Below are positions 4,011-18,077 of a stretch of 19,819 nucleotides of DNA, piece by piece; position 1 is the stretch's first letter, and each line of letters begins with the position of its first letter. The notes beneath the pieces are model-generated. The model did no database searches. It saw only the letters and a list, made by a program, of their open reading frames with translations, and was not told the origin of the DNA. The position numbers were made by a program, and so were the translations under genes. Source of the stretch: a virus; UHGV virus genome UHGV-0254309. The stretch is one strand, 5' to 3'.

Positions 4011-4215
4011 TCATTTTCACTTTCTTAAATCTAACGACAGACGGCTAACATTTAAGTATTGTGAAATATTATCAAATGTAATCATCATTGATTTACAAAA
4101 GATACATTTTGCCCCGAAAGGATTCCTGTCAGAAACATCAAAAGATGATGTTCTATACTGAGAACCATGGCAACACGGGCATCTAAAGTGAATATGGTTT
4201 GTAATATTTTCTACC

Positions 4216-4431
4216 TCAAAGTGCCACAACATGAACAGCCGCGGGGCCTTTAGGTCCGTTCTCAATACCAAATTCGACTTCCTGATTCTCAGTTAACGTT
4301 TTGAAATCGTTGCTCTGAATAGCTGAGAAATGGACAAACACATCTTTGCTACCATCTTTCGGCGTGATGAAACCAAAACCTTTTTCAGGGTTAAACCATT
4401 TCACTAAACCAGTCATTTTGTTAGACATCAT
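4216..4431 (-). CDS. cspI: Cold-shock protein, CspA family (CspI-like)
   Basis: 70-71 aa, [38 protein letters not shown]..., with RNP1/RNP2 motifs of the cold-shock domain. Two tandem ATGs at the start. Confidence 0.85.
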
Positions 4432-4791
4432 TATTACCTTTTGAAGAAGTTAGCCCTTGGGCAGAATGGTCCGAAAAAAAATATCAGAGAGAAAAACCAA
4501 CAAGGAAATCTCAAGAGGTACAAATAATAAAATTATAACAATGACTGCTTCAGATAATTTTGTAACAAACCAGAACACCATTAACGCATGATTAACCAAC
4601 CATAGCAAGGATTACTTTTGTAAAGAAAAACACACGAATGAAACAATAGCTTTATTTATTAATAAAACGTGTCATTCTGTCTAATGACCTTTTATCTTAC
4701 CCTTAAGATTTCAAGGATTTTGACTCATGGAAGAGTCCTTTTTATTTAAATTTCACATTCAGCGCTAAAAATAATCCGATTTAATATTAAT

Positions 4792-5932: not shown

Positions 5933-6193
5933 ATGGATTACACAAATCTACCAAAACAAACTTTTGCTGATTTAATCGCACTCAGGCAAGCAGTCGTAGC
6001 TCTAATCAACTTGTTGCCGGAGAAGGAAAAGGAATTAGTTAAAGCGCTTCTTAACAGAACTGCCGCCGATTTTTCATCATATCCACTGACAGATGACCTT
6101 GCGGACCTTCCTGAATTAATTGCAGCGTCCGCCATTAAGCTTACTGAAGAGATTTACCCTCCTCAAAAATCTTCACAAAATTCCTGCGAGTAA
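5933..6193 (+). CDS. Hypothetical small protein (about 86 aa), opposite strand to the lysis cassette
   Basis: ATG at 5933 with GAGGTGA Shine-Dalgarno 5 nt upstream; stop followed about 22 nt later by a hairpin plus T-run. 3' end overlaps the 3' end of the convergent minus-strand ORF by about 50 nt. Confidence 0.5.
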   Translation: MDYTNLPKQTFADLIALRQAVVALINLLPEKEKELVKALLNRTAADFSSYPLTDDLADLPELIAASAIKLTEEIYPPQKSSQNSCE

Positions 6194-7385: not shown

Positions 7386-7664
7386 TATTGTGGTGCTTTT
7401 TGTGGGAGTCATCCACTTACGCACTTTGTTTTGCTATGCCAGCAGTTAGCTTCTGCTGTAAAACTATTCATGCAGCAAACCTGCACTTCACCACAATGGT
7501 TAGCATACTTTTCCTGATTAAGTTATTGCCAAATATGCTGGCCATTGTTTCATGTATTGGACCTCCTTACTATTTATTAAAGAGATCCAATATTCACCAC
7601 TCTGTCTGTATCTCCACTCAGGCATCAGCCTTCTTCGTTATCGTATACAGACAAACTATGAATT

Positions 7665-7880
7665 TTAATCAGTAATTATGACATTTGCTGCTGCAGGACC
7701 TTTAGCACCACTCTCTACAGAGAAGGTAACCTTTTGACCTTCAAATAAGGTTCGAAAATTATCATTCTGAATCGCAGAAAAATGCACAAACACATCTTTA
7801 CTACCATCAACAGGAGAAATAAAGCCAAAACCTTTATCAGCGTTAAACCATTTTACTAAACCAGTCATTTTATTTGACAT
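7665..7880 (-). CDS. cspB: Cold-shock protein, CspA family (CspB-like)
   Basis: 71 aa, [45 protein letters not shown]..., full cold-shock domain; long upstream leader typical of cold-shock genes. Confidence 0.85.
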
Positions 7881-8180
7881 TCTACATTCCTTAACTTGAG
7901 CCTTTCGGCATAAATGGCTTGTATAACAGAAACGACTTCGTACTTAATTGGAGAGACTCAAAGAAGGAATAAGTGAATAACACCTGAAATGAGAACTGCT
8001 TTAGTAAACTACTTCGTATATCGTCTGTTCTTCAAACCGACGCAATCATTAACGCATAGTTGAACATATGAAGCAATGTTTATTTTAGACATCCAGCCAT
8101 CTTCAACCCCATCAAAAAACTATAGCTTTCTTCAGGAAGGTGTGTATAGTGCGCCCAGTTATCAGTATTAAGGAATTTTT

Positions 8181-14055: not shown

Positions 14056-14276
14056 GCTGCACCTCCGAGATGCTTCATGTTTTTTCCGGAGCGAAAGGCT
14101 ATAAGCGGCATACTGACGCGGTAATTACGGCCCAGCGGTTCACAAATCACCTTCTGACATTCACGGTCAACCAGGCTAACACGTAGAACATGCCCTGCAG
14201 GTGTGGTATACCACTGACCCGGACGAGGACAACGGAAAGTCTGATTGGTAAACCGTTTGAAAATATTCCGGATCAT
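14052..14276 (-). CDS. Hypothetical small protein (74 aa)
   Basis: Tightly packed between the Rha-domain ORF and the initiator gene, with start/stop overlaps on both sides. No recognisable domain. Confidence 0.45.
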   Translation of the reverse strand: MIRNIFKRFTNQTFRCPRPGQWYTTPAGHVLRVSLVDRECQKVICEPLGRNYRVSMPLIAFRSGKNMKHLGGAA

Positions 14277-15421
14277 TTGCGCCCCCTTACCTCTGAAGGG
14301 TTCAGCGACAAATTTATGAGGCAGGCCAGCGCCGAAGCATCATTAATATAGTCATACAAGCTAACAGCCAGCGGAGATTCGGCTTTTGCCAACATAGGAT
14401 AAAGCTGCTGCAGCCAGACCTGATGAATTGATGAAATGTAGGAATAGAGAACGCTGGCGTTATGTGCAACGTCGCTCGGTACAGGGGGTTTTGAAAGCTG
14501 TTTCTCCATCTGGTTAAAGGCATTGATATATGCCTCTTTGAACTGGGCAGCACGTTTACCCGTGAAACCCATAGCAAGAAACGCAAAGCCGTCGCGGGTT
14601 ATTTGATAGCAAGGTAGTTTGCGGCCTGATGCGTCGATGTACTCACTGAGCTGAAAATTCAGCTCAGTAAATTCGGCAGAGCATTCAAGAGACGCAATTT
14701 TTTGAATGACATTTTTGTGTTGTTTGCCGAAATAACTAGCAACAGCCAGAGAAGAAGTAACAACTTTGTCTGCAATAATGCAAAGTTCAGGTTGTACTAA
14801 GGCAGGGATCGTAGCCATGATGGCAGCCTCCGTATGCAATGGATAACTTCCACCACCGGAAACGCCAATTTCGCTGGTGGTGAACTGAGCAGGGTTGGCG
14901 TAACCGGCGCATACGGAAACCGGCGCACCTTTCGGTGCCCCCACCCAGCCCACCATAATTTGGGTATAGCTGAGTTGTAGCAACAAAAAAGACGCTAACG
15001 CGCCAATTGTCGCCGTATGCAATTCCAGGACGCCAATCCCGGCACCCGCTTTATAAGGTGCCTGAACAGTGTAACGTCCCGGAATGGCAGAATCAATGTG
15101 CTGGTGGTCCTTCACACTCAACAAAATCACGCCTGAATTTCCACAAAGGACTAAAGCACTCATGCGGGTAGTCTTTGCGAAGATAGATAACGCGCTGTGT
15201 TTCTGGTTCCCAACGAATAACATGAACATAAAGCCCTCTTCCGTCACGAAACCAGCGGTTAAGTTCCTGCACAACTCGCCCCCCACAGTCAGGTAAAGTT
15301 CTCTGTGGTTACTTACAGCCAGGTGATTTGGTAATCTGCATTCATGCCGTAACAACAGGTGTTCAGAGACGCTGACCACCAGCTGTTGCGACAAACGGTT
15401 ATTTGCCGTTAAACTGTTCAT
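14273..15421 (-). CDS. Rha-family phage regulatory protein with a roughly 200 aa N-terminal extension of unknown function
   Basis: Residues about 215-300 (VTSSLAVASYFGKQHKNVIQKI...YQITRDGFAFLAMGFTGKRAAQFKEAYINAF) match the Rha domain. Long ORF starts at an ATG overlapping the upstream stop; an internal ATG at about 14818 with GGAGG upstream would give a 181 aa Rha-only product. Confidence 0.6.
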   Translation of the reverse strand: MNSLTANNRLSQQLVVSVSEHLLLRHECRLPNHLAVSNHRELYLTVGGELCRNLTAGFVTEEGFMFMLFVGNQKHSALSIFAKTTRMSALVLCGNSGVILLSVKDHQHIDSAIPGRYTVQAPYKAGAGIGVLELHTATIGALASFLLLQLSYTQIMVGWVGAPKGAPVSVCAGYANPAQFTTSEIGVSGGGSYPLHTEAAIMATIPALVQPELCIIADKVVTSSLAVASYFGKQHKNVIQKIASLECSAEFTELNFQLSEYIDASGRKLPCYQITRDGFAFLAMGFTGKRAAQFKEAYINAFNQMEKQLSKPPVPSDVAHNASVLYSYISSIHQVWLQQLYPMLAKAESPLAVSLYDYINDASALACLINLSLNPSEVRGRK

Positions 15422-16222: not shown

Positions 16223-16319
16223 ATAACCTCCACATATTGCGTGATGAGCATATTATTTCACGCAAATATTTTGCGCAAGTTGATTTGCTTAACGCGCAAT
16301 AAAGAAATGTAATAAACGC
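16223..16319. promoter_or_regulatory. Immunity-region operator/promoter block (OR) with divergent PR-like and PRM-like promoters
   Basis: Operator-like sites: TTGCGTGA-N13-TCACGCAA (about 16237-16265), palindrome TTGCGCAA (16271-16278), TTGCTTAACGCGCAA (16285-16299). Minus strand: TTGCGC, 17 bp, TAATAT (PR-like). Plus strand: TTGCTT, 17 bp, TGTAAT ending about 6 nt before the cI ATG, with no Shine-Dalgarno. Confidence 0.6.
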
Positions 16320-17012
16320 ATGAACATAGGAAACCGAGTCAGACAACTTCGCCAGGCGAAGAACATGAAAATCGCCGATCTCGCTGAAGCAATAGGAGTG
16401 GATGCGGCGAATATCTCGCGCCTGGAAACAGGTAAGCAGAAACAATTCACTGAACAAGCCCTGAGTAATATTGCCAGGAGCTTAGGTGTTGATATTGCTG
16501 ATCTCTTTACCTCAGACGTCAAAAGTAATACTGTATGTAAAAACAGTATTAGTGAGGATGTTGCGCAGGTGAAGGATGTATTCCGTATTGAAATGCTGGA
16601 TGTCAGTGCCAGTGCGGGAAATGGCCTTATCCAGGGCGGTGATGTCATTGATGTGATTCATGCCATTGAATACAGAACTGATAATGCTGTATCGATGTTT
16701 GGCGGACGACCAGCCAATCACATTAAAGTTATCAACGTTCGTGGGGACAGTATGTGTCCAACCATTGAGCCAGGAGATCTCATCTTCGTTGATGTCAGTA
16801 TCAATCAGTTTGATGGAGATGGTATCTATGTATTTGGTTTTGATGATAAAATTTATGTCAAACGACTGCAAATGATACCTGACAAACTACTGGTGATATC
16901 TGATAACCAGATTTACCGTGAATGGGGAATTACCAGCGAAAATGAACACCGGTTTATGGTCTTTGGAAAGGTCTTAATCAGCCAGTCACAAACCCTTAAA
17001 CGACACAATTAA
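16320..17012 (+). CDS. CI-like prophage repressor (HTH plus S24 LexA-type autopeptidase domain)
   Basis: 230 aa; N-terminal XRE HTH (RVRQLRQAKNMKIADLAEAIGVDAANISRLETGK), Ala-Gly cleavage-site candidate (SASAGNG), catalytic Ser in GDSMCPT and Lys in VKRLQ. Confidence 0.85.
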   Translation: MNIGNRVRQLRQAKNMKIADLAEAIGVDAANISRLETGKQKQFTEQALSNIARSLGVDIADLFTSDVKSNTVCKNSISEDVAQVKDVFRIEMLDVSASAGNGLIQGGDVIDVIHAIEYRTDNAVSMFGGRPANHIKVINVRGDSMCPTIEPGDLIFVDVSINQFDGDGIYVFGFDDKIYVKRLQMIPDKLLVISDNQIYREWGITSENEHRFMVFGKVLISQSQTLKRHN

Positions 17013-17032: not shown

Positions 17033-17056
17033 AGCCACCCGAAGGTGGCTTTTCAT
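17033..17056 (+). terminator. Rho-independent terminator downstream of cI
   Basis: Stem AGCCACC / GGTGGCT with CGAA loop followed by TTTTCATT, about 20 nt after the cI stop. Confidence 0.6.
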
Positions 17057-17067
17057 TACCCATCAAA

Positions 17068-17106
17068 TTGCATATCTCGCAATAAAAACACTTGCATAAT
17101 GCGCAA
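17068..17106 (+). promoter_or_regulatory. OL-like operator pair, presumed PL region
   Basis: Two 15-bp sites TTGCATATCTCGCAA and TTGCATAATGCGCAA share the TTGC-N7-GCAA pattern seen in OR. Promoter hexamers could not be placed with consensus spacing. Confidence 0.5.
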
Positions 17107-17531
17107 CTTCATTTTATCTTTCTTTCCAGACCAACAAACAAGGTACTAACAAAATTTGGTTGTAACACGGCGTATGGCACATGCGTCGTTAGCGGTCTGG
17201 GGACGTTAAAGGGGACAATCCACTCCTTGCTCGGGCAAACAAACCAGGTAGCCGGAATGTGCAAGTCAATGATGATGCTGATAAGACGCCTAACCAGCGC
17301 GGCGATCCGGTTTGACGCCTGGGAAGAGACCAGGGTGCAACGATGAGGGCATTTATGGAACCGCGACAAAGTGTGGTGCCGTAACTGGCTAAGTGCTCTC
17401 AGCGTTGTGGTAATCCGCGAAATGGCGCGGCGGTAAGTATGGCGGGGTTACTCTTTCCCCGTTGAGGACACCGGATTGTCAGGTTGACCATACGCCTGAG
17501 TGACAACCCCACCACAACAGCCACTGCTTTG

Positions 17532-17583
17532 GCGGTACCAGTTTGTACACTTGCTTCCGGCTGGTACCGCTCTTTTTACAAAA
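17532..17583 (+). terminator. Hairpin plus T-run in the PL leader, overlapping a boxA-like motif
   Basis: Perfect 10-bp inverted repeat GCGGTACCAG...CTGGTACCGC (19-nt loop) followed by TCTTTTTACAAAA; the CGCTCTTTTTACAAAA stretch resembles boxA. Confidence 0.4.
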
Positions 17584-17714
17584 CAGAGAAGAGCATCACC
17601 GGACGACGGGCTCATAACCCAATCCATCCGGGCGGCTGCCACCGCAGGTGTTCTTCTCTGTTTTGTGGAGAAACCAACCGGCCTTGCAGGGTCGATATGA
17701 TGAGGAGCAGCAAA

Positions 17715-18077
17715 ATGGCTAGCGAACGCAGTACTGATGTGCAGGCATTTATCGGGGAGCTGGACGGCGGCGTATTTGAAACCAAAATCGGCGCAGTTCT
17801 CAGTGAAGTCGCTTCCGGTGTGATGAACACGAAAACCAAAGGTAAGGTCTCGCTCAACCTGGAAATCGAACCGTTTGATGAGAACCGTGTGAAAATCAAG
17901 CACAAACTCTCATATGTTCGCCCGACTAACCGCGGGAAAATTTCCGAAGAAGACACCACCGAAACGCCGATGTATGTCAATCGCGGTGGTCGCCTGACTA
18001 TTCTGCAGGAAGACCAGGGACAATTACTGACTCTTGCCGGTGAACCTGACGGAAAACTCCGCGCAGCAGGTCATTAA
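17715..18077 (+). CDS. yfdP: YfdP-like prophage protein
   Basis: 120 aa from the ATG at 17715, which has GAGGAG 7 nt upstream (MASERSTDVQAFIGELDGGVFETKIG...). The longer listed frame includes the leader hairpin and is probably not translated. Confidence 0.7.
   Translation: MASERSTDVQAFIGELDGGVFETKIGAVLSEVASGVMNTKTKGKVSLNLEIEPFDENRVKIKHKLSYVRPTNRGKISEEDTTETPMYVNRGGRLTILQEDQGQLLTLAGEPDGKLRAAGH

Follow-up and report, generated by a model that had tools for sequence, protein, structure and literature searches.

A probable array of noncoding RNA modules heads the early-left operon of an N-less lambdoid prophage of Escherichia coli

The viral genome UHGV-0254309, a stretch of 19,819 nucleotides (nt) that we refer to as the window, represents a lambdoid prophage of Escherichia coli of the SfV/SfII/mEp460/cdtI type, and between its putative early-left operators and the start codon of yfdP lie 608 nt (positions 17107-17714) for which RefSeq has no feature, and the same holds for the listed matches among other E. 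coli genomes. We find that this interval is not a simple leader but is pieced together from structured RNA modules, all on the + strand, and we consider it probable that it constitutes a co-transcribed, processed array of noncoding RNAs that heads the early-left (PL) operon of an N-less prophage, with yfdP being reached by read-through. Its DicF-like element and modules B and C are a so far unreported version of an untranslated region (UTR) of the known dicBF type, and for module A, the first element, we found no earlier description in Rfam 15, in genome annotation or in the searchable literature. An earlier note on this DNA, made from the sequence alone, had remarked on a gap of about 600 nt, which is real, and had expected functional RNA structure within it, which is borne out; it missed, about 300 nt upstream of the hairpin that it singled out, the most conserved and most structured part of the interval, module A.

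Compared with shuffled sequences, the interval folds with unusual stability on the + strand (z = -5.25, as against -2.9 on the - strand), and it is G-rich and highly structured. BLAST comparison with phage genomes resolves it into separate stretches that recur independently in unrelated phages, and these were named modules A, A', B, DicF-like and C; the modules and helices given below are all on the + strand. Conserved structure and covariation, the lack of which in related prophages the earlier note had named as evidence against its reading, are both present, modules A, B and C and the DicF-like hairpin being conserved with compensatory changes.

Module A (17152-17344) is an RNA about 190 nt long (overall range 160-190 nt) that is both conserved and structured. 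It comprises the helix H1 (17168-17176 with 17180-17188), P2 (17196-17200 with 17244-17248), which encloses a variable hairpin, the invariant segment GGUAGCCGGAAUGUGCAAG (17247-17265), P4 (17286-17290 with 17296-17300), the loop of which (17292-17295) forms a pseudoknot with 17309-17312, and P5 (17318-17322 with 17330-17334); in the pseudoknot, a P4 loop reading UCACC or UAACC pairs with a downstream GGUG or GGUU. When the five helices, pseudoknot included, were evaluated on 22 diverse sequences (alignment A5), 94.5% of cells were paired as against 28-48% with the partners slid, compensatory changes were seen in 12 pairs, and the observed values were reached by 0 of 500 shuffles, although here, as for module C below, covariation controls leave some phylogenetic signal. 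The RNA also has invariant unpaired nucleotides, and it was assigned to the + strand because U-G and G-U pairs are conserved. Module A is accordingly a real structured RNA of that strand. Two further pairings were set aside: a closing helix GUUGUA/UGCAAC was dropped as other subtypes do not keep the pairing, and a long-range GCACAU/AUGUGC pairing proposed by RNAalifold involves invariant columns only, the local H1 being preferred as it covaries.

No match to module A exists in Rfam 15, whether at the gathering score or at E <= 10, and we found in the searchable literature no earlier description of it or of the P1 trnI-ban spacer, which contains a homologue. The leader RNAs are not mentioned in the Hfq crosslinking and immunoprecipitation (CLIP) paper on enterohaemorrhagic E. 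coli (EHEC), and the Pas small RNAs reported in a preprint from the Storz laboratory are unrelated and sited in the late region.

The distribution of module A is broad within the enterobacteria. An exact 22-mer from its invariant core occurs in at least 120 viral contigs, and a 19-mer retrieves 24 loci from a one-genome-per-species set of GTDB, 22 of them in Enterobacteriaceae or Erwiniaceae and the two exceptions being one chance match and one probable contaminant. The module is found in 1376 of 5426 complete E. coli genomes (about 25%) and in 256 plasmid places, and is annotated in none. A tRNA-Arg(UCU) begins about 168 nt past the motif in 29 of approximately 126 occurrences and a tRNA(CAU) ends about 91 nt before it in 26, with the adjoining tRNAs on the same strand in every case. 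In P1 and P7 the homologue lies directly after trnI and before ban (spacer 71010-71194 in P1); in phiV10-, TL-2011b- and SPN1S-type (epsilon15-like) phages it forms part of a small island on the + strand, frequently with a tRNA-Arg immediately after it; in mEp390 it is again downstream of the prophage repressor; and in two Kosakonia prophages its first nucleotide falls near +1 to +5 of the transcript from PL. In the epsilon15-like islands (L144 at about 5950-5990; L155, L158, L162, L128) we observed that TTGACA-N17-TACCTT precedes the module and overlaps the palindrome ATTACCTTTTAGGTAAT, the operator-like appearance of which suggests that these islands may be under repressor control.

Module A is followed by the hairpin A' (17338-17407), in which CAACG (17338-17342) and GAGGGCA (17345-17351) pair with TGCTCTC (17394-17400) and CGTTG (17403-17407), a pairing read directly from the sequences. 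Its distal part is variable: the flanks GAUGAGrGCAyU...AGUGCUCUynnCGUUG are constant across loci and the interior is swapped. Module B (17404-17518) then forms a three-hairpin, cloverleaf-like structure closed by GTTGTGGT (17404-17411) with ACCACAAC (17511-17518), its consensus showing compensatory changes in 4 pairs, which is modest covariation support. The approximately 125 nt ahead of dicF in phage Tritos and in the Qin prophage of K-12 are about 89% identical to it, and it is related to the annotated "dicF-like region" of P1. The slot after A' opens with GUUGUGG and closes with CCACAAC, and its contents differ between phages; in phiV10-like phages it is filled by a genuine tRNA-Arg beginning at this GUGG and by a tRNA-like element with a canonical T-arm in Phytobacter, and ARAGORN reports 0 tRNA or tmRNA genes in the window. 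The junctions AGUGCUCUynnCGUUGUGG(U/C) and CCACAAC (17394-17411 and 17511-17518) border swappable RNA cassettes and recur in other loci (L162, L144, L141, L154), sometimes twice per array; the first is boxA-core-like (UGCUCUUU in some loci) yet base-paired. Such a junction may represent a processing signal or a recombination boundary.

Directly 3' of this pre-dicF element lies the hairpin that the earlier note had described as perfect and 10 bp long. The hairpin is indeed there, GCGGTACCAG (17532-17541) pairing with CTGGTACCGC (17561-17570) around a loop of 19 nt, and other genera keep it with compensatory changes; its tail reads TCTTTTTAC (17571-17579, given also as UCUUUUUAC), so that the stem is followed by UCUUUUU, and the fold energy of 17519-17578, hairpin included, is -21.5 kcal/mol. 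The whole element, UUUGGCGGUACCAGUUU...CUGGUACCGCUCUUUUU (17527-17577, with the U-run at 17571-17577), aligns with DicF, UUUGGCGGUAUCAGUUU, which has the same position downstream of module B in K-12 Qin and in Tritos, and it matches the 5' arm of DicF in 16 of 17 nt. Across genera the distal stem covaries (UACCAG/CUGGUA, UUAUCC/GGAUAA, CAUCC/GGAUG, CGUC/GGCG and CACC/GGUG), the U-run follows the stem in all homologues from other genera, and some variants retain the CCGUGA loop of DicF. The Rfam scan of 17107-17714 that the earlier note had proposed yields nothing at the gathering score and, apart from noise at E <= 10, a single sub-threshold alignment in which the DicF model (RF00039) covers 17528-17572 in the same helix register (model positions 12-52), with 11.8 bits against a gathering score of 48 and E = 2.1 in a 101-nt search. 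The element thus shares the setting of DicF: it lies within an extended untranslated part of an early operon of a prophage, and it ends in a Rho-independent terminator. We regard it as an intrinsic-terminator hairpin that, to judge by position and shape, is a relative of DicF and by the Rfam criterion not a member of the family. Of the four explanations offered in the earlier note, an unannotated small RNA and a plain attenuator both suit a DicF-like terminator in the dicF slot of a Qin-type UTR.

Past the terminator, module C (17573-17671) consists of a continuous helix of 25 bp (17573-17597 with 17647-17671) capped by two small hairpins. It engages the terminator U-run, which pairs with GGAGA, together with the next 20 nt. 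Among 13 sequences (alignment A6), 96.3% of cells are paired, whereas sliding the partners leaves 42-53%; compensatory changes are seen in 7 pairs, and many pairs are U-G. The hairpin, the U-run and module C are kept, with compensatory changes, in phages of E. coli, Kosakonia, Phytobacter, Klebsiella and Salmonella, and since this unit sits ahead of different first open reading frames (ORFs) in different phages, it is not a leader specific to yfdP. Qin likewise has a helix, of 13 bp, directly after the dicF terminator (GAATTTTGTGATG...CATCACAAAATTC). DicF itself is made by termination and RNase E processing, and RNase III cuts read-through dicBF transcripts to give a 72-nt DicF species (PMC9438474, PMC5069750).

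The conservation of a terminator-like hairpin and U-run directly upstream of the first ORF might also be explained if the hairpin were a mere attenuator, that is, a leaky terminator setting the level of the yfdP operon, with the upstream modules serving as a structured 5' UTR for stability or Rho resistance and none of them acting in trans; a G-rich, highly structured UTR would disfavour Rho loading. We regard this as unlikely. No competing upstream partner that would act as an antiterminator was identified for the 5' arm of the terminator, module C can form only once the terminator has been passed, and modules A and B are also found in unrelated operons, by tRNAs, dicF and different genes, which is unexpected for a gene-specific leader.

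A processed RNA array, the reading that we favour, would operate as follows. A repressor-controlled promoter would transcribe module A first, as a pseudoknotted RNA of about 190 nt, then hairpin A' and module B, and then the DicF-like RNA, the stem-loop and U-run of which would act as an intrinsic terminator. Some transcripts would end there and, by analogy with DicF, be trimmed to small stable RNAs, of which the DicF-like RNA and module A might have roles in trans. In transcripts that read through, the U-run would instead become part of the 25-bp helix in module C, which RNase III probably recognises as a substrate, and the cut would part the RNA array from the yfdP-yfdQ-yfdR mRNA, comparable to the release of the 72-nt DicF from dicBF read-through. 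We favour this course of events because the modules reappear in other phages independently of one another; because module B and the hairpin occupy the exact pre-dicF and dicF positions of Qin and Tritos; because module A is a real and widespread + strand RNA on the same strand as adjoining tRNAs; because hairpin, U-run and module C are conserved across genera before different first ORFs; because the Rfam DicF model aligns with the hairpin in the same helix register; because Qin, too, has a long helix after the dicF terminator and the biogenesis of DicF is documented; and because no conserved ORF is present.

Several observations weigh against this interpretation. The similarity to DicF is sub-threshold in Rfam and limited to the 17-nt 5' arm and to shape, and the element of the window is without the first 11 nt of DicF and without its ftsZ-pairing loop; in a crude and weak duplex test against ftsZ it gave z = 0.2 relative to shuffled sequences, with DicF itself reaching -1.3. 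Cuts by RNase III as well as by RNase E are proposed by analogy only, and the early-left promoter itself fails a consensus scan. It should also be noted that an array of RNA genes would describe the anatomy of the locus and not the role of module A, which is the very first transcribed element in several promoter contexts, so that a cis role on the polymerase fits equally well; module A could be a cargo noncoding RNA or an N-independent antiterminator.

Comparison with the ydfC-dicF-dicB region of Qin (DicF, RF00039) illustrates both sides. Each is an early-left-type operon downstream of a repressor gene, and in each the B sequence is followed by an element that starts UUUGGCGGUAyCAGUUU and forms a stem-loop with a U-run, and then by a long helix ahead of the first downstream ORF. 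In the window, however, other sequences stand in place of the DicF 5' end UUUCUGGUGAC and of the ftsZ-pairing loop, neither module C nor the gene downstream, yfdP instead of dicB, resembles its counterpart in sequence, and the array, which starts right at the promoter, includes module A, an element missing from Qin.

That the interval might instead encode small proteins, namely ORFs of 84 amino acids (aa) on the + strand and 86 aa on the - strand over module A, a 66-aa ORF (+) and a 151-aa antisense ORF (17448-17903, -), appears highly improbable. Such ORFs are annotated in the mEp460 and SfII records, the 151-aa ORF is often called by phage annotators and matches phrog_3651 in PHROGs with 320 bits, and phrog_33599 matches the 66-aa ORF (within 17500-17700 of the window). 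Yet no reading frame stays open across the diverged homologues, in which module lengths vary in all three classes modulo 3 and variable hairpins alter the length out of frame; substitutions follow compensatory base pairing; Pfam finds nothing in the four longest ORFs of the interval; and RefSeq calls no gene. The conserved coding ORF that the earlier note had allowed for was thus not encountered in the homologue alignment or in Pfam. The two PHROG families have no assigned function and are built on ORFs that coincide with the DicF-like hairpin, module C and the strand antisense to yfdP; we believe that they probably arose as artefacts of annotating conserved DNA that encodes RNA, and that several "hypothetical protein" calls over leader RNAs are probably spurious as well.

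The note was also correct that the leader has no N-like ORF: no Arg-rich candidate was found in it, and Pfam finds nothing. N is absent from this phage type, and specialists have guessed at a put-like or RNA-based mechanism for yfdP-type early-left operons (PMC12315714). A reading that the note had offered, in which the hairpin together with the boxA-like string CGCTCTTT (17568-17575) forms a nut-like or put-like site, now has very little to recommend it. CGCTCTT does agree with lambda boxA in 7 of 8 bases and lies in an early PL transcript, and sibling PL leaders carry a canonical boxA, CGCTCTTTAACAA, but they do so elsewhere, after a different leader RNA (module E, see below). As a boxA the string is not supported. 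Matches to YGCTCTTWA with one mismatch number 11 in the window, with 15 +/- 3.8 expected by chance; homologues read CCGTCC, CCGCCC, CCGACC or GCCGCAAT at the site, and even the functional phage SfV reads CCGTCC (CCGTCCTTTTT); and bases 17568-17570 belong to the base of the terminator stem. At the hairpin we found no conserved, single-stranded boxA (CGCUCUUA / UGCUCUUUAACA), and the 13-mer rrn-type boxA has no match within 3 mismatches at the boxA-like site. Unlike lambda nut, moreover, the string has neither N nor a boxB partner, and a nut-like site serving an N encoded elsewhere is disfavoured by the same chance-level frequency and variation among homologues.

The put sites of HK022 and its relatives are RNAs of about 70 nt with two stem-loops and the consensus GAACGGCGCG...CCAUGCGUCGG...GGCGGGyUCAGGAuGArCGGCAAU; they lie just downstream of the early promoter or promoters, HK022 having one site per early operon, and suppress termination through the zinc-binding domain of beta'. 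From six puts (HK022 putL and putR, the annotated putL-like RNA of HK639 and three further homologues) a covariance model, R1, was built that scores HK022 putL at 98 bits, HK639 putL at 91 and HK022 putR at 55. Run without filters, the model yields no match at E <= 10 in 17100-17715, nor on modules A or E of related loci, so that the idea of a put-like element at the hairpin is not sustained.

A more serious rival is that module A serves in cis as a processive antiterminator RNA that needs no N, similar to put or to the EAR of Bacillus and belonging to neither family, which folds on the nascent transcript and modifies RNA polymerase so that it passes the DicF-like and later early-left terminators. 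We consider this possible, though clearly less probable than an array of RNA genes. It would suit a phage without N for which an RNA mechanism has been guessed (PMC12315714), and it would account for the invariant unpaired nucleotides and the pseudoknot, as well as for the promoter-proximal position of module A in the window, in mEp390, in the epsilon15-like islands and in Kosakonia. Furthermore, in two of three contexts (the window and L144) a conserved intrinsic terminator is found downstream of the module, ahead of the first ORF; in the epsilon15-like island L144 a strong terminator is located about 430 nt past module A, just before the ORF. In P1, by contrast, the copy is about 2.4 kb from Pban, after trnI, and no terminator lies between it and ban. 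Further arguments against are the failure of the put model on module A and the fact that the window has one copy of module A and no second for the rightward operon. HK639 also carries a single putL.

The relation of module A to put has been considered at the level of individual helices. Both occur in N-less lambdoid phages as structured RNA near the start of the PL transcript, and H1 (17166-17188) shares with put stem I the sequence ACGGCG...CAUGCGUCG (loci compared: HK022 putL, L133 4300-4275, -; HK639 putL, L163), a 9-nt identity with the same CGGCG/CGUCG pairing. Counted in favour of an antiterminator, this identity has a chance probability of about 0.04, which we rate as not significant, and it could reflect chance or a shared 5' hairpin. 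Unlike put, with its 70 nt and two stems, module A has 160-190 nt and five helices with a pseudoknot, and it occurs also in the ban operon of P1 and beside tRNAs. In SfII and some contigs (L002, L174), an H1-like hairpin stands alone ahead of module E.

Module E, which is not in the window, was found in sibling leaders. It is a highly conserved RNA of about 65 nt with two stem-loops, ACAGGCAGGACGCCCACGAAGUAGCCGCC..GGCAUAUGAAG..GGAUGAUUCG, the second stem of which covaries, and in phages without N it begins about 10-20 nt past promoters of the PL type that represent several immunity types (SfV, L137 696-762; ST64B, L135; L139, L154, L136, L005 and many of L167-L246); in many cases a hairpin and a canonical boxA (CGCTCTTTAACAA; CGCUCUUUAACAA) come after it. 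By BLAST, it is unannotated in phage records or lies under a hypothetical-protein ORF, and, as for module A, no earlier description was found in the searchable literature; modules A and E are conserved structured RNAs undescribed in Rfam 15, in genome annotation and in that literature. Module E is a candidate N-independent antitermination site, and it does not match the put covariance model. Among 80 E. coli viral contigs with identical YfdP, 43 have module A only, 31 module E only, 1 both and 5 neither, and the nearly complete mutual exclusion of the two would be expected if module A were an antiterminator as well. In Kosakonia, Phytobacter and Pseudescherichia, however, E and A occur together, with E first, and since they co-occur in three genera they are not simple substitutes. 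Should module A nonetheless prove to be an antiterminator, it would found a new class of phage RNA and, with the 65-nt module E and boxA of SfV- and ST64B-type phages, would provide at least two interchangeable solutions for N-less lambdoids of Enterobacteriaceae, the former having been borrowed by P1 and epsilon15-like phages; we give this scenario the same limited credence.

Returning to the array that we consider probable, the ban operon of P1 offers a second parallel. It is a repressor-controlled early operon with homologues of both A and B, but the order differs, with the B-like region being followed by tRNAs (trnA, trnT and trnI are annotated) and tci genes and only then by module A, and there is no DicF-like terminator or module C before ban. 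The P1 spacer past module A (L007 3190-3215) contains UUUCUGGUGA, the first 10 nt of DicF, which the DicF-like element of the window is without. GOLLD and ROOL, phage and prophage RNAs of several hundred nt that often lie by tRNA genes and combine ornate structure with variable domains, resemble the present locus in these respects; there is no Rfam match to either, however, and the hosts here are Enterobacteriaceae. In contrast to GOLLD and ROOL, the modules recombine independently, and the unit is therefore probably an array and not one large RNA.

The leader modules link loci that were previously unconnected, namely dicF of K-12, the ban operon of P1 and the tRNA islands of epsilon15-like phages, and in module A they include a strongly covarying RNA that neither Rfam nor genome annotation lists, although about one-quarter of the complete genomes of E. 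coli carry it. As the PL leaders consist of defined, conserved RNA modules, there are now concrete candidates with which the question of early-left expression becomes testable in N-less lambdoids such as SfV, SfII, ST64B, mEp460, cdtI and several Stx2-converting phages (e.g. Stx2c, Stx2k).

The remaining features frame the interval. The cI-like repressor gene (16320-17012, +) ends in a terminator (17033-17050), after which come operator 1, TTGCATATCTCGCAA (17068-17082), and operator 2, TTGCATAATGCGCAA (17092-17106), both with the motif TTGC-N7-GCAA; a third copy lies in the cI/cro intergenic region (16285-16299). The window contains 4 copies of the motif where 0.8 are expected, and the immunity region holds 3 of the 4. 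No consensus promoter was found at the operators in a promoter scan, and the early-left promoter was for this reason placed by position, at a -10-like CATAAT (17095-17100) that the two operators flank or overlap. At the other end, a small hairpin (17679-17683 with 17690-17694) and the yfdP ribosome-binding site GAGGAG (17702-17707, +) were read from the sequence and precede the ATG at 17715 (+), which corresponds to the RefSeq start; an upstream in-frame extension of yfdP is closed in the Kosakonia and Phytobacter homologues.

Elsewhere in the window, Rfam matches above the gathering score identify a C4 antisense RNA (14873-14960, -; 80.7 bits) and IsrK (14985-15061, -; 61.2 bits), both inside a 382-aa ORF (14273-15421) that RefSeq annotates as a Rha-family regulator. 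These matches suggest an antirepressor control module of the P1/P7 c4-ant (immI-like) type and, possibly, an over-extended coding sequence call. Two full-length matches to the cspA thermoregulator (7602-8041, -, 156.5 bits; 4170-4586, -, 109.8 bits) indicate, in addition, that the prophage has two cold-shock-protein-type genes with structured 5' UTRs.

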